Source: a virus (taxonomy: Duplodnaviria > Heunggongvirae > Uroviricota > Caudoviricetes). Taken from it: a stretch of DNA of 64,000 nucleotides. This document shows positions 9,007 to 62,883 of this stretch, one piece after another. Position numbers and translations under genes: made by a program. The DNA is taken from positions 1 through 64,000 of the IMG/VR virus record IMGVR_UViG_3300018080_004888; one strand, 5' to 3'. The notes under the pieces were generated by a model. It had not been told where the DNA came from. It did not search any database and saw only the letters and a program-made list of their open reading frames with translations. Positions within the stretch are counted from its first letter, which is position 1. Each line of letters begins with the position of its first letter.

Positions 9007-9595
9007 TTAAAAACTCCTCGCATTTTTCCATAAGATGTTGTCGTACCTCTGCCATCGCATCGCGGGGCAGGGCCTTCCCTGGATCGGGTAATTTCCTAAG
9101 TGCCCTGACTGCTTCGGGGAACCACCACTCGGTAGCCTTAAAAACTAGCTCTCCCTCCGGTGTTACGCCTACGTCTCTGAGTACCAGCATGTAACAACCA
9201 TCGTCTTGAATGATATGGGCAATGCCACCATACTCATCTTTCAACGTGGCGAGTGGACGGTGTTTGCTGGGCCTGCCCTGGGTAAAATAATAATCGTCGC
9301 TTATAAGCACATTGATCTCGTAATCGGGATAGGGCTGTAGAACGTAGCCCTTTTTATTCTCAGGCTCTTCGGTTGCCAAAGACATTAGGTGCCGATGTTT
9401 TTTGCAGTCTGGGCAAATGTAGCTTGGCAAGACCCACCTTCCGCCTCCAGGCCTCGGAAGTCGCTCATAGACTCCCGCATTTCCTGATCCGCAACTACAA
9501 TACTCGATACCGTCTTTTGCTTGGACAGTAGAGATAGGCACCGCTGCCGCTGCTCCAGCGGCAGCGGTGGTTTTGAAAAAGTCTCGTCTGTTCAT
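8993..9595 (-). CDS. Tat-signal secreted hypothetical protein (family member 5).
   Basis: MNRRDFFKTTAAAGAAAAVPISTVQA N-terminus. Confidence 0.55.
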   Translation of the reverse strand: MNRRDFFKTTAAAGAAAAVPISTVQAKDGIEYCSCGSGNAGVYERLPRPGGGRWVLPSYICPDCKKHRHLMSLATEEPENKKGYVLQPYPDYEINVLISDDYYFTQGRPSKHRPLATLKDEYGGIAHIIQDDGCYMLVLRDVGVTPEGELVFKATEWWFPEAVRALRKLPDPGKALPRDAMAEVRQHLMEKCEEFLNEQT

Positions 9596-13696: not shown

Positions 13697-14462
13697 CTGC
13701 TCCCCTTTTATGAACGAATTCGACCTACTCGATCTCAAGATCGCGGAGGAGTCGGATGTCGTAGATGAAATTTACATCATCGAGTCGAACCAGACACTAC
13801 ACTGTAATCCTAAACCCATGAATCTCCGCAATAGAAGCGAAGATTACGAGGGTAAAGTGCATATCTGTGGGATTGAAAGCGAGTTTAATCCGAACGATCA
13901 TTACAACAATGATACTATTCAAAAGGACTCCATTCTAAAATTTTTCGAATATGGCGATGCCGATGTGTTGCTTTGTGCAGACATCGACGAGGTTTTCAAA
14001 AAAGAAGAGATCCCCCGCATCGTAGAAGAAGCCCAAAAACACGGATTTGTGAAACTAAGACAACATCTCTTTTACTACAAAATCAATCTGAGACGTAGCC
14101 CCAAAAAAGGATGGAAATCAGCCTTTGCGATCACAGGTAAAAAGATGAAGGAGTTTAAGGGGCAAATACACAAACTTCGTAGAACAGATGGCCCGTCCAT
14201 CGAAACAGACGGGAAGCACTTTAGCTATCTGATGACACCTGAATTGATCGCCTACAAGATCAACAACGCAGGGCATCCAGAATACATGAAAGACAAATTC
14301 ACCAACATCAAGACAATAGAGGATAAGATAGCCAATCAAATAGACCCCTTCAATCGAAAAGCAAATGGGGAACTTATTCGACTTGAAAAGGTCGCAGTCG
14401 ATGAAACATATCCCCAGACAATCCTCAACAACCTGGATTATTGGAAAAAACACATCGCATGA
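13683..14462 (+). CDS. Glycosyltransferase family 17-like (beta-1,4-N-acetylglucosaminyltransferase fold).
   Basis: N-terminus MRVFSCSPFMNEFDLLDLKIAE..VDEIYIIESNQT...KPMNL matches the GT17 (PF04724) N-terminal signature FFNELDLLELR..VD.FVLVES...KPL. Confidence 0.55.
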   Translation: MRVFSCSPFMNEFDLLDLKIAEESDVVDEIYIIESNQTLHCNPKPMNLRNRSEDYEGKVHICGIESEFNPNDHYNNDTIQKDSILKFFEYGDADVLLCADIDEVFKKEEIPRIVEEAQKHGFVKLRQHLFYYKINLRRSPKKGWKSAFAITGKKMKEFKGQIHKLRRTDGPSIETDGKHFSYLMTPELIAYKINNAGHPEYMKDKFTNIKTIEDKIANQIDPFNRKANGELIRLEKVAVDETYPQTILNNLDYWKKHIA

Positions 14463-52811: not shown

Positions 52812-53084
52812 TGGCAGGGGCAGGATTCGAACCTACGGCCTCAAGGTTATGCTTACCAACTACGGTTTTCACCGCCCTTACGGTTTGTGGTCTGGACTTT
52901 CTCTTCACCCTCGGCTTTAACCGTTAGGGTGCCTGCCGTCAAGTCTCTACACCTTCCCTTTTACGAGCTTGGCTCGGGATTACCATTTCACAGGCTTCCC
53001 CGAATTTGACAGGTAACCAACTTGGGTTTCCCCAAGTTGTGCCCAAATCGAGCCTTGCGAGCTACCAGACTGCTCCACCCTGCG
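52812..53084 (-). tRNA. tRNA-Met/Ile2-type (CAU anticodon loop CUCAUAA) interrupted after U33 by a roughly 199-nt group-I-intron-like insertion.
   Basis: Exon 1 (53051-53084) is CGCAGGG-UG-GAGC-AGUCUGGUA-GCUC-G-CAAGG-CU. Exon 2 (52812-52851) is CAUAA-CCUUG-AGGCC-GUAGG-UUCGAAU-CCUGC-CCCUGCC-A. The anticodon stem CAAGG/CCUUG forms across the insert. The 1:72 pair is a C-C mismatch. Confidence 0.45.
52852..53050 (-). mobile_element. Candidate group I intron (copy B), paralogous to copy A.
   Basis: Shares the R-like and S-like elements and a covarying hairpin CAACUUGGG-GAAA-CCCAAGUUG with copy A. Ends in ...GUAGUUGGUAAG (a candidate omega G). Confidence 0.35.
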
Positions 53085-55768: not shown

Positions 55769-56428
55769 TCAGTTTGGTGATGAAAAGTATTTATGATAAT
55801 TCGGTTCTTCGCTGCCAAAGAATTTTGCCTTTTCCTTATGGCAATCGGCCATATTTTCAGAATCGAAGAGTTCGCTTAACCAGTATCTCTGCCTGAGCAT
55901 CTGGTATTTTTGGTCTTCGAAGCTCTTTCGGAAATATGCAATTGCTTTATCAGCAGCTTTGGTTCCTCTTTCCTCGCCAGCGGCAACAACCGCCAACGTC
56001 AATGCCGTGCAAGAAAGAAGAATCGCTTCTTGCAGTCGTTCTTTCTGATCTTCATTTGCCCATCCGCTAACGAGGATAATAAGGGCCACAACGTAATGCA
56101 GACACATATCCGCGACTTCTCCGACATCATTGATCTCACCTCCGATCTCCTTAAAGTCACCCAAGACTTGTCGAAAAACTTGACCTCTATCCTCATCGGC
56201 TTCGACTAATTCATCAACCACTTGGTCTATATCAATGCCCGAGTACCTCGCAAGAGCCATCATAAGTAAAGATGCTCGGGTTACTGTGGAGGTGGAAGCA
56301 TCGCGAAGCTCCATTTCTTCCTTTTCGGATATATCGCAGGCATATGACGCGAGCATCTCATAGAAATGTAAGGTCACATCGAGTGCGACTCGTAAGGTGT
56401 TGTCGATGTTTTTCATTTCTTGAACCAT
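55769..56428 (-). CDS. Hypothetical protein of 219 aa.
   Basis: ORF with no recognised motif. Confidence 0.3.
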   Translation of the reverse strand: MVQEMKNIDNTLRVALDVTLHFYEMLASYACDISEKEEMELRDASTSTVTRASLLMMALARYSGIDIDQVVDELVEADEDRGQVFRQVLGDFKEIGGEINDVGEVADMCLHYVVALIILVSGWANEDQKERLQEAILLSCTALTLAVVAAGEERGTKAADKAIAYFRKSFEDQKYQMLRQRYWLSELFDSENMADCHKEKAKFFGSEEPNYHKYFSSPN

Positions 56429-56991
56429 TTGGCATTTGCCGCGATAAAATATTGGATATCCACTTCGCGAAACAACTCTTCATCCCATTGGTATTTCAGT
56501 GCCTTCTCGGGATCGTTTTTTGTCATCGTCGCCCAATTGTCGTACCATACAAGTTCGGTTTTCAAGAGAGAAGCAACACCACTCCAAACTTCGTCTATTT
56601 TGAACGTGGAAGACCAAAATACGTGTATTGCATCTTCTAGTGAAACCGCTCTGGGTTGGCAGAGTTGTCCGTTATCGTAGATGTTCGGCAATGGCGGAAT
56701 AAGCGATGTATCTCCGTAACTCCTGGCGGGCTTATTCCTCATACTAACAGCGAGGGTTTTTTCACAAAACACAAACTGCATATAAGGAAAGGCCAAGGTA
56801 TAGACGAATTTCCCGCATCCGGGGATACCTAATTTGCTATCTACTTCATCATCACAGGGAATATCGAGCTTAATCGTTCTGATTTGTGGTTCGAATTCAA
56901 CAATAATGATCTCACTTGAACTATCAGGGCAATTCACATGAAGGCCAGGACTCACCAATTTATCGGCGGTACATTGTTCTAGAATTCTCAT
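56413..56991 (-). CDS. Hypothetical protein, paralog family member.
   Basis: Shares EPQIRTIKL...FPYMQF...PLPNIY...FWSSTF motifs with 57204..57950 and 62071..62883. Confidence 0.4.
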   Translation of the reverse strand: MRILEQCTADKLVSPGLHVNCPDSSSEIIIVEFEPQIRTIKLDIPCDDEVDSKLGIPGCGKFVYTLAFPYMQFVFCEKTLAVSMRNKPARSYGDTSLIPPLPNIYDNGQLCQPRAVSLEDAIHVFWSSTFKIDEVWSGVASLLKTELVWYDNWATMTKNDPEKALKYQWDEELFREVDIQYFIAANAKWFKK

Positions 56992-60136: not shown

Positions 60137-60541
60137 AATAATTCACACCGAAGAGCAGTATAAATGCTTCCTCTTGGTATTCTTAAATCTCGCCAAATAT
60201 CTGAGCAATGGGATGGCCCGTGCTTTTCCAAATAGGCCCTTATTCTTTCCCGTCGCTCTATTGTGATTGGTTTAATAGTCATGTCACCCTAAGCATTAAA
60301 TGCGTGTTTTTCCCACCATTCGAGCGTTTTCTTCTCTCTCCACTTCTCCCATCCTGGGTCGGTTTCCTTTCTTATCCGAAGTTTTCTGACTTTTTCCGCA
60401 CAAATTTCGCACCAATGCAGATGCCCTTGAAGTGCGATTTTTAAGTCATACGAACAATCATCCTCAACGTACCTAATCGCTTCTGGCAGGTTGAGGCATT
60501 TCATTTCACCCCTCATAGTCTTTTCTCCTTCGTCTATCCTT

Positions 60542-60581
60542 AGAAAAAACAAACCCCGCTTCGCTCCGCGAAACGGGGTTT
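60542..60581 (-). terminator. Intrinsic terminator downstream of the tRNA-like repeat cluster.
   Basis: AAACCCCG...CGGGGTTT 8-bp stem followed by TTTGTTTTTTCT on the minus strand. Confidence 0.45.
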
Positions 60582-60595
60582 GTAAACAGTCACCA

Positions 60596-60680
60596 GCGGC
60601 GAGGGTGCTTGCGAGGACACCATCTCTGAATCCGAATCCGAAGACTCCGACCCAACGCTCTGCACTTGAGCTACTCGCCA
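60596..60680 (-). ncRNA. tRNA-like ncRNA unit 4.
   Basis: Acceptor UGGCGAG/CUCGCCG, canonical D-arm UA-GCUC-AAGUGCA-GAGC, then an internal GAGUC-UUCG-GAUUC hairpin and a GGUG-N10-CACC pseudo-T-arm. No anticodon arm. Confidence 0.4.
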
Positions 60681-60777
60681 GATGAGACTGCACGGGTTCA
60701 AATGCAGTCTCAAGGGGTGGCTCTCAGCCATACAGAACTTTTGGGTTCCCTATGGACCTTGCATCGAGAGCCACAAG

Positions 60778-60848
60778 TGGGAGTGGGTGTTCGTTAAGCA
60801 CCGACCTTCGGGCCTGTTGCCCGACGCTCTACTCTGAGCTACACTCCC
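60778..60848 (-). ncRNA. tRNA-like ncRNA unit 3 (71 nt).
   Basis: Acceptor GGGAGUG/CACUCCC is perfect. D-arm GCUC-AGAGUA-GAGC. Hairpin UCGGGC-AACAG-GCCCGA replaces a proper anticodon loop. Pseudo-T-arm GGUG-CUUAACGAA-CACC. Confidence 0.4.
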
Positions 60849-60861
60849 AAACGGACTGGAG

Positions 60862-60936
60862 TGCGAGTGGGTGTTCGTGAGGCACCGTCTCCTGCCGCAT
60901 TGCTGCGACAGACGCTTTACTCTAAGCTACACTCGC
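60862..60936 (-). ncRNA. tRNA-like ncRNA unit 2 (75 nt).
   Basis: Acceptor GCGAGUG/CACUCGC is perfect. D-arm GCUU-AGAGUA-AAGC. Aberrant anticodon-arm hairpin. Pseudo-T-arm GGUG-CCUCACGAA-CACC. Confidence 0.4.
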
Positions 60937-60939
60937 ATG

Positions 60940-61048
60940 GTGACGAGGGTAGTTGCTAATTACCATCTCCGAACCCGGATTGATCGTAAACGCCGAAGCG
61001 TAGCAGACACGATCCAAGTCCGACGCTCTGCACTTGAGCTACTCGCCA
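60940..61048 (-). ncRNA. tRNA-like ncRNA unit 1 (about 109 nt).
   Basis: Acceptor UGGCGAG/CUCGUCA (G-U), D-arm GCUC-AAGUGCA-GAGC, long internal hairpins (GAUCGU...ACGAUC), GGUA-N9-UACC arm, 3' ...A-CCA. Confidence 0.35.
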
Positions 61049-62070
61049 AAAATGTCAGGTATTAGCACAAGATCTATTCCTGACGGTGGTGATCCCCAGA
61101 TCAACATCAATAGACTCCTTGGGTCTGTACACGGGGGTTTAAAGCCCTTCACACACCTTCACCCCTGTTCTTGGTTCTACCCACGGAACAGCACGTAGTA
61201 GTGGATGCAGCATTCTAAGCTAGCTCTAAGATAACCGTCGCTATCTTTTTGCGAACTCGCTGACCTTTGTACCCCTGGGAGGTACTCTAGCCAGCCCCTT
61301 GCGGGCAGCGTCACACCTTGCGGTAATGACCGTAGGCACTTCTACTATCACCCACGCATCTTTTATCCAGCCCTCCGAAGAGGACTTAGGATTTCCCAGG
61401 AAACTTATTCAGTTTCACAACCTTATCAATGACAAATCGATATTGTGTAACAAACCGTTATACGATAAAGATACAAATCCGCATTCTTTTGGATAGCATT
61501 CTATTGGTCGGACAATAGCTCACACCCTAAGTTACTAGCGAGTTCTGGGCTCCGACACCCTTATCCCACGCCACCCTCGTACAGTTAGATGCGGAGAGGC
61601 CGCATCAGCCCCAAAGGGTTGTCCTGTCTCTGGCTTTCGCCTATGTCCGAAGACTTGACCGCCCGGTTCGTTCATGGCAAGTCAGTTTTGAGTCCCGGCG
61701 ACAAAGGGACTTGTATGCTTTAGCGACTGTCGTCGCCGTATTAGCGATTATTGTGTGGTCCAAATTGTCAAAGAGCAAATGCTTGTTCATCAAGCATACT
61801 TGGGATTCTACAGATTCCTAAAACTTCGTCAAGGGGACTTCGAAATTTTTTCAAAATACTTCCTCGGGCAACGAGCCCGAGGAAGTCGGTTGGGTAGACC
61901 AGCCAAAGACTAAAGACTGGTCGAAGAACCGAAAGGAGTATTCCAAAGGGCACCTTCTCGGGGGCGAAGCCCGAGAAGGTGCTTCCCGAAAGGAAGGAAC
62001 ATGGTCCCAAGTAAGTTGTCAAAGATCAATAATTGGGATTTTACGGATTCCCAAATCTTCGTCAAGCCCT

Positions 62071-62883
62071 CTAATCAAATTTTTTCGGAGAGCTTTTTTG
62101 GTATTTCACTACGGCAAAACCGCGAAGCGGGCCATCTTTGCGGTTTATCGGATCTCTTCCGTATTTCGGGTTTCCGCTCATCCCATCTGACCTCGGCCCA
62201 CCAATGTCAAATTGGGGAATCTCGGCAATACGGCAGGGATGTGTCCAAGCCACCTTAGTAATAAAATTCGGATTTTCCTTTGTCATTCTTTCCCAGCGAA
62301 CATACGTCTTCATCGGCGTTTCGTATTCCAAAACTGGAAACGAATACCAGTCCTCACAGTCCAAATAACGCGTGTTCCAAAAGTTCGTGATGACTACTTC
62401 AAATTTGTTATTTGGAGCGTGCATCAGGCAAACTTGGAGGCTTGGATACCAAATGTTCGGCAACGGCGGAAAGAATACTTCCTGATCGATATATCGGATT
62501 GGCTCGTTGCTAAACGAAACATGGAGACTTGTACCCATTTTCCCCAAGTATCTTGTAAACTGCATATACGGCATTGCCAATTCGTGGTTGAAATACTGTT
62601 CACAAAGGCAAAATTTGCACACCCTTATTTGGGGTGGATATTCAACAACGTGTAGTTGTTTGTCCTTATAGACTTCGCGACAGGATTTCATTTGTTCTAC
62701 ATATTCCCTGGCAGCGTTGGCCTCCTGTTGTCTTTTCGCCTCATTTATCTGTTCTTCGTATTCTGCCATTGCCACTTCGTAGAATTTCAATCCATCTCCA
62801 CAGGGTTTCCCCGCATCCTCCCAAAGGTAGTATGCTCGGACGCGGACACATTCTATGAGTTCGGCGGGGGATAATTGGGGCAT
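62071..62883 (-). CDS. Hypothetical protein, paralog family member.
   Basis: YPPQIRVCKF...MPYMQF...PLPNIW...FWNTRY motifs shared with 56413..56991 and 57204..57950. Confidence 0.4.
   Translation of the reverse strand: MPQLSPAELIECVRVRAYYLWEDAGKPCGDGLKFYEVAMAEYEEQINEAKRQQEANAAREYVEQMKSCREVYKDKQLHVVEYPPQIRVCKFCLCEQYFNHELAMPYMQFTRYLGKMGTSLHVSFSNEPIRYIDQEVFFPPLPNIWYPSLQVCLMHAPNNKFEVVITNFWNTRYLDCEDWYSFPVLEYETPMKTYVRWERMTKENPNFITKVAWTHPCRIAEIPQFDIGGPRSDGMSGNPKYGRDPINRKDGPLRGFAVVKYQKSSPKKFD

Follow-up and report, generated by a model that had tools for sequence, protein, structure and literature searches.

Tandem tRNA-like elements without an anticodon arm, adjoining a large structured RNA, form a conserved family in related phages

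Analysis of a 64,000-nt stretch of DNA from a virus of the Caudoviricetes (positions 1 to 64,000 of IMG/VR record IMGVR_UViG_3300018080_004888, hereafter the window) revealed that four tandem transfer RNA (tRNA)-like units, encoded on the minus strand at positions 60596-61048, belong to a conserved and covarying family in which a hairpin replaces the anticodon arm. In the window these units lie downstream of a structured RNA of ~670 nt, referred to here as the large RNA, and much of the interest in them stems from this link, because the large RNA is common to the tRNA operons of Planctomycetota and to huge phages. A literature search, which covered the large RNA narrowly, found no description of the unit family, whose members we rate as tRNA-like processing elements or tRNA mimics. 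Our preferred reading, held with moderate confidence, is that the units are tRNA-derived mimics matured by ribonuclease P (RNase P), ribonuclease Z (RNase Z) and the CCA-adding enzyme, and that their maturation punctuates a polycistronic noncoding RNA (ncRNA) transcript.

The units, the spacer between the third and fourth of them and the hairpin that closes the cluster are as follows, with scores in bits under the covariance model R1 and loop types as described further below.

61048-60941, followed by CCA at 60940-60938, minus strand: unit A (type A), 108 nt plus the encoded CCA, 63.4 bits
61048-61042, minus strand: unit A, 5′ strand of the acceptor stem
61039-61025, minus strand: unit A, D arm
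61023-60969, minus strand: unit A, middle hairpin of 55 nt, UUCG-capped
60968-60965, minus strand: unit A, variable region AGAU
60964-60948, minus strand: unit A, T arm GGUA-AUUAGCAAC-UACC
60947-60941, minus strand: unit A, 3′ strand of the acceptor stem
60936-60862, minus strand: unit B (type B), 74 nt plus discriminator A, 75.6 bits; acceptor stem GCGAGUG/CACUCGC, D loop AGAGUA, 9-bp hairpin with GCAA tetraloop, variable region AGAC, T arm GGUG-CCUCACGAA-CACC, trailer CUCCA
60848-60778, minus strand: unit C (type B), 70 nt plus discriminator A, 75.3 bits; acceptor stem GGGAGUG/CACUCCC, D loop AGAGUA, 6-bp hairpin with loop AACAG, variable region AGGUC, T arm GGUG-CUUAACGAA-CACC, trailer CUUG
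60777-60681, minus strand: spacer between units C and D, two very stable hairpins (−46.3 kcal/mol, z = −6.8)
60680-60596, minus strand: unit D (type A), 84 nt, 59.3 bits; acceptor stem (U)GGCGAG/CUCGCC(G), D loop AAGUGCA, 30-nt UUCG-capped hairpin, variable region AGAU, T arm GGUGU-CCUCGCAA-GCACC
60583-60543, minus strand: terminator-like hairpin and U-run after unit D, 16 pairs, 9 of them G-C

The cloverleaf was the unconstrained minimum free energy (MFE) fold of every unit when each was folded singly. These folds, together with reading of the sequence, bore out the positions and sizes given in a preliminary description of the region (109, 75, 71 and 85 nt for A, B, C and D, counting the discriminator), as well as the hairpin that it placed where an anticodon arm would be and the shared T-arm-like GGUR...YACC. 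In each unit a 7-bp acceptor stem is followed by U8 and A9, the D arm, a single nucleotide (G), the hairpin, a variable region of 4-5 nt (AGAU, AGAC or AGGUC) and the T arm, whose 4-5-bp stem GGUR/YACC closes a loop of 8-9 nt and stacks on the acceptor stem. The acceptor stem had been called perfect; in unit A it includes the pairs U1-A72 and G3.U70, and in unit D the outermost pair (1:72) is a U.G wobble left open by the MFE fold. Likewise, the 4-bp D stem is the textbook GCUC/GAGC in units A, C and D but GCUU/AAGC in unit B, and its 6-7-nt loop is without the universal GG. The hairpins that replace the anticodon arm measure 17 nt in unit C, 22 in B, 30 in D and 55 in A, with loops AACAG, GCAA, UUCG and UUCG, respectively; they vary in length and sequence and are capped as structural hairpins are.

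Compared with a canonical tRNA, the units have the 7-bp acceptor stem, D arm, T arm, discriminator and core tertiary nucleotides, but they lack the 5-bp anticodon stem with its 7-nt loop (U33, anticodon, R37) and the canonical elbow, there being neither G18 G19 nor G53-T54-Psi55-C56-R57-A58...C61. The T loop (4-bp stem, 9 nt) reads N-Y-U-N-R-C-R-A-M, with C at the position expected for A58 and no G53-C61 pair. ARAGORN called none of its tRNAs in the window at the four units, and the Rfam tRNA model (RF00005; gathering threshold 29 bits) did not match units A-D even at E≤10. A tRNA-like domain of a transfer-messenger RNA (tmRNA) was considered and rejected: neither ARAGORN nor Rfam called a tmRNA, G3.U70 is found in unit A alone, and a reading frame for a tag is lacking.

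A cloverleaf descriptor that allows any middle hairpin of 13-74 nt matched the four units, ten real tRNAs and three stray positions in the window. On twelve dinucleotide shuffles of the window the same descriptor gave ~5 matches per 128 kb, which corresponds to a chance expectation of ~0.01 matches on one strand of the 60596-61048 interval versus the four observed. The shuffle rate therefore places four units on one strand within 453 nt far beyond chance.

The preliminary description had proposed a search for the family in related genomes; copies were found there, so that the units are neither absent from nor unconserved in them. The covariance model R1, built from 12 units taken from a descriptor scan of related loci, detected 18 copies that score 44-81 bits and are spread over the window and six related huge-phage loci; one of these loci, L019, holds a further, weaker copy (26.9 bits). 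Six of the 18 strong copies lay outside the training set, and real tRNAs scored no higher than 35 bits under R1 in the phage loci and 40 bits in bacterial loci. Clusters range from five units (L021) through four (the window and L016) and two (L011 and L019) to one (L014 and L015), and an eighth phage locus, L013, contains a different tRNA-like element alone. In the 18-row alignment, which was fitted to the model, 99.7% of cells form standard pairs, with double-sided changes in 10 of 16 pairs overall and in six of the seven acceptor pairs; the covariation score was 0.51, whereas shuffling the columns gave 0.15 and sliding the partners by 1-3 columns gave no more than 0.11. Although the 12 training units had been chosen by a perfect-stem rule, the six copies from outside the training set and the slid-partner control argue against circularity.

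Outside the helices, U8, A14 and A21 are invariant across the family, and the tertiary Levitt pair 15:48 covaries (G:C in 10 units, A:U in six, another combination in one). The acceptor stem retains G5-C68 and mostly G2 and G3, and the remainder of its sequence is not conserved. Unit C has a counterpart in L021 (11966-12038) with an identical acceptor stem and a different hairpin. One copy, at 14104-14173 in L011, exceeds the Rfam tRNA threshold with 45.5 bits, which points to a tRNA ancestry of the family. The judgement of the preliminary description that the units are too regular for decay and too aberrant to decode is thus upheld by the conserved and covarying copies found in related phages.

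The D and T loops of the family fall into three conserved, co-occurring types:

Type A: D loop AAGUGYA, T loop xxUxGCAAC (ACAAA in one unit)
Type B: D loop AGAGUA, T loop xxUxACGAM
Type C: D loop AGAGCG..., with an inserted hairpin in some units, T loop ACUCGCGUC

The middle hairpins have stems of 5-22 bp, closed either by a tetraloop or by an odd loop of 3-7 nt. UUCG or GNRA tetraloops cap about half of the 19, and none of the 19 combines a 5-bp stem with a 7-nt loop, U33 and R37. Pairing between the D loop and the T loop was considered as a substitute elbow, the candidate being columns 21:96 (U:A in eight, C:G in two and U:G in one); these columns mirror the split into loop types and their register is ambiguous, and we make no claim for them.

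The flanks of the units resemble those of pre-tRNAs. CU follows the discriminator in 11 of 19 units, compared with 4.9% of dinucleotides on this strand, and the trailer N73-CU(U/G) is also found in 14 of the 17 tRNAs of the window and in Planctomycete tRNAs. Several units that do not start with G match this trailer pattern when shifted by one base. The base at position −1 is U in 12 of 19 units versus 26% expected, and bacterial RNase P prefers U(−1). An encoded CCA, which the preliminary description did not report, comes directly after unit A of the window and after the L011 copy at 14104-14173, and CCA stands one to two bases further on in unit B (CUCCA) and in L015 (UCCA). Together, U(−1), the CU trailer and CCA suggest that the units resemble pre-tRNAs to the cell.

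Transcription signals and the large RNA extend this picture upstream of the cluster.

62065-62038, minus strand: promoter-like site P1, a near-repeat of P2
61832-61805, minus strand: promoter-like site P2, sigma-70-like with a consensus match (TTGACG, 16-nt spacer, TAGAAT)
61721-61050, minus strand: large structured RNA (~670 nt), with a hairpin and U-run at its 3′ end, abutting unit A

P1 and P2 were the only promoter-like sites in 60300-62300; both are on the minus strand and outside the cluster, P2 being the one nearer to it. Because P1 and P2 face the region, the units appear as the tail of a ~1.5-kb noncoding block, and the hairpin and U-run after unit D agree with the earlier statement that a minus-strand terminator closes the cluster. 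Going beyond the preliminary description, we predict that the units form the tail of a ~1.25-kb ncRNA operon of which the large conserved structured RNA is the main product. The +1 base of unit A is the final U of the 3′ U-run of the large RNA.

The large RNA was found by nhmmer in all eight phage loci (the window and seven relatives), as well as in bacteria and in one further viral contig:

L011 12982-13628: phage homologue
L013 11587-12239: phage homologue
L014 14929-15570: phage homologue
L015 13030-13644: phage homologue
L016 12533-13208: phage homologue
L019 10985-11631: phage homologue
L021 11305-11965: phage homologue
L023-L051: bacterial homologues
L052 3114-3699: viral homologue

RNAalifold on an alignment of the large RNA, which is ~650-680 nt long, predicted 163 pairs, and compensatory changes occur in 98 of these. 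Among the motifs that do not vary are AUAGACGAAAG, GAAGUGCCUAC, GCCCGMAAGGGG, GCGACGG, CACUACU, ACAGGGGUGAA, GUGUACAGACC and GGAAUAGANCUUGUGCUAA, after which comes the U-run. Searches of the window and its relatives with Rfam, both at the gathering threshold and at E≤10, returned no family for the large RNA or for the units of the window. RNase P RNA was considered as an identity for the large RNA because GGGGUGAAGG, ACAGACC and GACGAAAG look similar by eye; it was rejected, as there was no model match and no P4-like pairing was found.

A two-motif pattern identified the large RNA in 29 GTDB genomes and one IMG/VR contig (L052). The genomes are almost all Planctomycetota (Pirellulales and Planctomycetaceae, e.g. 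Roseiconus nitratireducens and Aeoliella straminimaris), the exceptions being two contigs labelled as Gemmatimonad and one unclassified metagenome-assembled genome, and a profile search detected full-length homologues in most of the 29 (E down to 3e-117). Where tRNAs are annotated (L027, L035, L036 and L042), the bacterial large RNA sits within the main tRNA operon, in the order tRNA-Phe, large RNA, then tRNA-Glu or tRNA-Pro, Ile, Lys, Ile(UAU) and so on. The distance from its 3′ end to the next tRNA is often short:

L027, L046 and L024 (near-identical junctions): 1 base to tRNA-Pro
L035: about 7 nt to tRNA-Glu
L038 and L042: about 20 nt to tRNA-Glu
L036: about 160 nt to tRNA-Glu
L031: about 230 nt to tRNA-Ile
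L052 (viral contig): 1-2 nt on each side, to tRNA-Thr upstream and tRNA-Gln downstream

In six of the eight phage loci a tRNA-like element begins 0-6 nt past the U-run with which the large RNA ends. This element is a unit of the R1 family in the window, L016, L021 and L019, and one of a different kind, with an acceptor stem and a canonical T arm, in L011 and L013. Working tRNAs flank the large RNA in cells, and non-decoding look-alikes hold that place in this phage clade. The position of the bacterial large RNA among real tRNAs points first to a processing, or punctuation, role for the units. From the shared large RNA, the probable host of the clade is a member of the Planctomycetota. A role of the large RNA as a marker of bacterial prophages was considered and rejected, its neighbours being ordinary chromosomal genes (sulfatase, NAPRTase, PPK2 and SdhB-like). 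The large RNA is probably the weightier discovery of this region.

The tRNA-Phe(GAA) that precedes the large RNA in bacteria (L035 1147-1219 and L044 3154-3225) has an A53.G61 mismatch and the T arm GAGG-AUUCGAGCG-CCUC, which resembles the 4-bp stem and 9-nt loop of the units; it is also among the top-scoring real tRNAs under R1 (36-40 bits). This Planctomycete tRNA is a possible ancestor of the unit family, tRNA-Ile(UAU) being another candidate.

We propose that the units serve as tRNA-type punctuation of an ncRNA precursor, a mechanism in which co-transcription, cleavage, CCA addition and stability of the products are all predicted. P2 would drive one precursor comprising the large RNA, units A, B and C, the hairpin spacer, unit D and the terminator. 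Host RNase P would cut 5′ of every unit, and at unit A its cut would form the 3′ terminus of the ~670-nt RNA; RNase Z, or an enzyme equivalent to it, would cut past the discriminator, and CCA would be added to the units that do not encode it. These cuts would free the large RNA, the spacer hairpins and L-shaped mimics unable to decode. The anticodon arm would be useless for punctuation, and potentially harmful if it decoded, and could thus have given way to an inert, stably capped hairpin of arbitrary length. The parts read by the maturation enzymes, namely the acceptor/T stack, the U8/A14/15:48 core that would give the L shape, the discriminator and the flanks, would have been kept, and the G18G19/T-loop elbow would have been exchanged for other conserved loops. 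As a 3′-end-processing element would, unit A stands directly 3′ of a longer RNA, and the units have an acceptor/T stack with a pre-tRNA-like leader and trailer.

Processing of units C and D could also free the spacer between them as a small-RNA cargo. Structured inter-unit spacers that are alike between phages also occur at L016 13526-13630 and L021 12433-12532, and at L011 13982-14103 and L014 16044-16227. One of these conserved pairs is a long hairpin of ~100 nt closed by CCUGUAC...GUACAGG, and the other has the terminator-like end ...GCACUYRAAGUARGUCUG...UCGCCYUUUUUU. The spacer RNAs may likewise be small RNAs freed by processing of the units.

Several points weigh against punctuation. We infer cleavage by RNase P and RNase Z from the anatomy of the units, and the altered elbow might weaken recognition by RNase P. 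The gaps between units A and B (3 nt) and between B and C (13 nt) mean that no cargo is freed at those junctions, a single handle would suffice for the large RNA, and the hairpin and U-run of the large RNA could themselves terminate transcription. No unit abuts this U-run in L014 or L015, and in L011 the type-B units stand apart from the large RNA, behind a promoter-like site of their own. Finally, the loops are near-invariant within the three types while the stems drift, and at least one type-B unit is present in seven of the eight phage genomes (not in L013), in differing contexts. This degree of constraint exceeds the known needs of a bare RNase P handle and suggests that the mimics are products themselves.

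A tentative alternative, which we regard as possible, is that the released units are abundant mimics of the top half of tRNA and act in trans as decoys, a role that the preliminary description had also named, or as ligands for a reader of the acceptor end or elbow, processing being the route of their biogenesis. Such a reader could be an enzyme of the phage, a sensor that binds tRNA, or a host toxin whose targets for modification or cleavage are the acceptor stem or 3′ end of tRNA. In addition to the loop conservation and the wide occurrence of type-B units just described, the presence of tandem copies with no cargo between them is consistent with this role, and the UUCG and GNRA caps suggest selection for a robust, long-lived fold. 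An odd elbow would let a partner distinguish mimics from tRNAs, or let the mimics evade tRNA-binding factors. However, no partner was found, and no defence or anti-defence gene is consistently adjacent in the related loci. Toxins that cut the anticodon loop cannot be decoyed, as the loop is absent, and conservation of the acceptor stem at G5-C68, and mostly at G2 and G3, leaves no identity set evident.

The distribution of the family also weighs against a decoy role, since exact pattern searches did not find the family outside this phage clade: the type-B pattern was absent from GTDB species genomes, IMG/VR and JGI metagenome contigs except those of the window's own phage. Scans of IMG/VR with D-arm patterns returned two unrelated phages alone, and the gene found in L001 is an odd tRNA-Gln-like gene. 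The unrelated, AT-rich L002 (IMGVR_UViG_3300047678_000541), which has an amber-suppressor tRNA, carries two tRNA-like genes at 9150-9420 in which the anticodon arm consists of a 7-bp stem with a GUAA or GAAA cap; in one of these GNRA-capped genes ARAGORN reads a 4-base anticodon. L002 also carries two mini tRNA-like elements with an encoded CCA. The GNRA-capped genes suggest that anticodon-less tRNA look-alikes may occur in further phage lineages.

It is also conceivable, though in our judgement unlikely, that the units and the ~670-nt RNA make up one undescribed RNA system tied to tRNA operons, in which the large RNA would bind or act on the tRNA body and the mimics would be its partners with a redesigned elbow, or else decoys guarding the tRNA pool or the large RNA. 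If so, the units would be the first dedicated non-decoding tRNA-shaped cofactors or decoys that are multi-copy and virus-encoded.

A related reading, in which the large RNA binds or acts on the tRNA body and the phage supplies non-decoding ligands or substrates for it, is distinctly unlikely. The large RNA does sit among tRNAs in cells, abutting one in several genomes, and in phages it is usually followed directly by a tRNA-like unit, the units keeping the tRNA core and not the anticodon. Nevertheless, no complementarity between unit loops and the large RNA was conserved beyond chance, the type-B units of L011 appear to be a separate transcription unit, and co-transcription with processing is a simpler account of the adjacency.

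The preliminary description also raised Y-RNA-like partners of a nearby Ro60 homologue, and the homologue proved to be real. The open reading frame (ORF) at 45480-47042 (minus strand, 520 aa) gave weak sequence signals (VWA_2 at E 0.002, TROVE chains at E 0.066), its homologues gave a sub-threshold vWA_Ro60 signal, and a profile search of PDB sequences was negative. In contrast to this faint signal, the top 13 PDB hits of its AlphaFold model (predicted local distance difference test score 82.5) were all Ro60/Rsr, with E down to 2.6e-11; they include the Thermus phage Ro60 and span nearly the full length (TROVE ring and vWA), which argues that the homologue is genuine. Its homologues at 58-75% identity number over 2900, and many of them lie on contigs of huge phages that reach 693 kb, so that the gene appears to be common among such phages.

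That the units tether or gate this protein, as the bacterial Y RNA YrlA does for Ro60, is nonetheless quite improbable. The Ro60-like gene and the units share a strand, and YrlA RNAs are tRNA mimics too (PMC4201824). In YrlA, however, the Ro-binding stem is formed from the 5′ and 3′ ends, the T arm precedes the D arm, the acceptor-like stem is closed by a loop, the D and T loops keep canonical nucleotides, GNCGAAN0-1G stands near the 5′ end, and the gene shares a strand with rsr and is no more than about 4 kb from it (PMC4201824). The units match neither this domain order nor the closed loop, the canonical loop nucleotides or the motif; they lie 13.5 kb from the Ro60-like gene, and no Y-RNA family in Rfam matched them at E≤10. 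In addition, the unit family was found in one clade, in contrast to the broad occurrence of the protein on huge-phage contigs. A tRNA-like fragment at 47206-47291 (minus strand), ~165 nt upstream of the Ro60-like gene, has the canonical T arm GCGGGUUCGAAUCCCGC and ends in ...CCCCCACCA; it is a better-placed candidate for a YrlA-like Y RNA, or for a tRNA-like element, than the units. Further sub-threshold tRNA-like fragments lie in the tRNA array at 47891-47949 and 48156-48203 (minus strand). No result supported the roles as primers or attachment (att) sites that had also been suggested for the units.

We consider it highly improbable that the units are non-canonical tRNAs that are still aminoacylated, serving as amino-acid carriers outside decoding or as decoders with an unusual loop. 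In favour of this, the units have an intact acceptor stem and an intact discriminator, mostly A73, and are expected to end in CCA; the anticodon is ignored by some synthetases, and unit A combines G3.U70 with an encoded CCA. Against this, G3.U70 is absent from the paralogue D and from type-A relatives in other phages, so that alanine identity, considered on account of that pair, was rejected; no acceptor identity set is conserved, no middle hairpin has the geometry of an anticodon arm, and no transferase or synthetase gene is consistently nearby. Decay into functionless pseudogenes, for which the tRNA derivation of the units and their being missed by tRNA finders could be cited, is strongly disfavoured and in effect excluded, because each helix is 100% paired over 18 copies in seven phages, with many compensatory changes that speak against recent duplicates lacking independent substitutions, the tertiary pair covaries and the loops are conserved, and the replaced arm is a well-formed capped hairpin and not degraded sequence.

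The window looks like part of a huge phage genome. It contains 17 tRNAs (ARAGORN) and two group I introns, and most of its ORFs are without a family assignment. The introns (51879-52066 and 52871-53069, minus strand; 67 and 65 bits in Rfam) lie in or next to the phage tRNA array. The identical window sequence was present in several metagenome assemblies, in which gene callers left 60517-62070 empty, and contigs with exact copies of the neighbouring proteins were identical to the window and thus offered no variation to compare. A 270-aa flanking protein has homologues of 51-71% identity, and gene order is conserved on the contigs that carry them (131, 168 and 634 kb); a neighbour protein had no relatives in IMG/VR, and blastn of the region against 50,697 phage records gave no match.

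Upstream of the ncRNA island is a conserved gene block (56413-56991, minus strand, and in L003, L011, L013-L016, L019 and L021) encoding ThiF/E1-like, JAB and Prok-E2-like proteins together with SAM synthetase and APS kinase. The block is a ubiquitin-like conjugation set of this phage clade.

At 61845-62065 (minus strand), P1 is followed by a hairpin-rich stretch of ~190 nt that ends with a terminator-like hairpin at 61886-61858 and AUUUUGAAAAAA, and it is likely a separate small-RNA gene upstream of the large RNA. The leader motif YUCUUUGAMAA occurs ~20-35 nt past each promoter-like site, just before the large RNA (at about 61766-61776 and 62012-62025, minus strand), and also upstream of the large RNA in L011, L013 and L015; it could be a processing site or a phage-specific promoter element.

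Comparison with known systems places the units among several groups of tRNA-like RNAs. Phage T4 makes two stable RNAs, C and D (species 1 and 2), that are non-decoding, are encoded in the T4 tRNA cluster, are co-transcribed and co-processed with its tRNAs and have tRNA-like ends. No function is known for these RNAs, nor are they known to form a family of multi-copy cloverleaves in which another hairpin replaces the anticodon arm. GOLLD and ROOL are highly structured ncRNAs of phages and bacteria, ~600-800 nt in length and often next to tRNA genes. The large RNA is analogous to them in size and tRNA context, but it had no Rfam match to GOLLD or ROOL even at E≤10 and, unlike them, is placed in the tRNA operons of Planctomycetota and in huge phages. 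The units led to a richly covarying, Rfam-less RNA of the Planctomycetota tRNA operon that huge phages have taken up or share, a new candidate for the class of large ornate RNAs and one that gives these phages a probable host.

Closer to the proposed role of the units is tRNA punctuation, known from mitochondrial genomes, the t-elements of plant mitochondria and bacterial ribosomal RNA/tRNA operons, in which tRNA or tRNA-like folds between RNAs are RNase P and RNase Z cut sites that release their neighbours. The Planctomycete loci share this arrangement, as real tRNAs flank the large RNA there, within a few bases in several genomes. In contrast to those systems, which usually employ working tRNAs or poorly conserved stubs, the units are a conserved, dedicated and non-decoding family with loop signatures of its own. 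They amount to a natural experiment on the parts of a tRNA needed for folding and processing, in which the family preserves the core and the 15:48 pair, leaves the anticodon arm unconstrained and has three conserved versions of a rewritten elbow.

Like YrlA, the units are non-decoding tRNA mimics in a genome with a Ro60 homologue; YrlA occurs in bacteria and phages, and some YrlA RNAs are cut by RNase P and given CCA (PMC4201824; bioRxiv 10.1101/312249). YrlA is circularly permuted, whereas the units are in tRNA order with free acceptor ends and non-canonical loops, and lack GNCGAAN0-1G.

The closest functional analogue of the units appears to be mascRNA/menRNA, and more broadly tRNA punctuation. 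These tRNA-like elements lie at the 3′ ends of the vertebrate long noncoding RNAs MALAT1 and MEN-beta; for mascRNA, RNase P cuts on the 5′ side and so generates the mature 3′ terminus of the long RNA, while the small RNA is completed by RNase Z and the CCA-adding enzyme (PMC8457004, PMC11693755). As with mascRNA, the units have a tRNA-like fold directly 3′ of a long structured ncRNA, are non-decoding and are predicted to be cleaved. They differ in being phage or bacterial, not eukaryotic, in occurring as 2-5 tandem copies, not a single one, and in having a full D arm and core, a variable and often long hairpin and three loop types, in contrast to the much reduced body of mascRNA. No sequence homology to mascRNA was found, the sole match being a sub-threshold one of 18 bits on the different tRNA-like element of one relative. 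Should the units indeed act as punctuation, they and the large RNA would be the equivalent, in bacteria and phages, of the MALAT1/mascRNA arrangement and a natural precedent for the engineered tRNA scaffold and for tRNA-guide RNA arrays, in which a virus keeps purpose-built, non-decoding tRNA shapes to borrow host tRNA maturation for its own ncRNAs.

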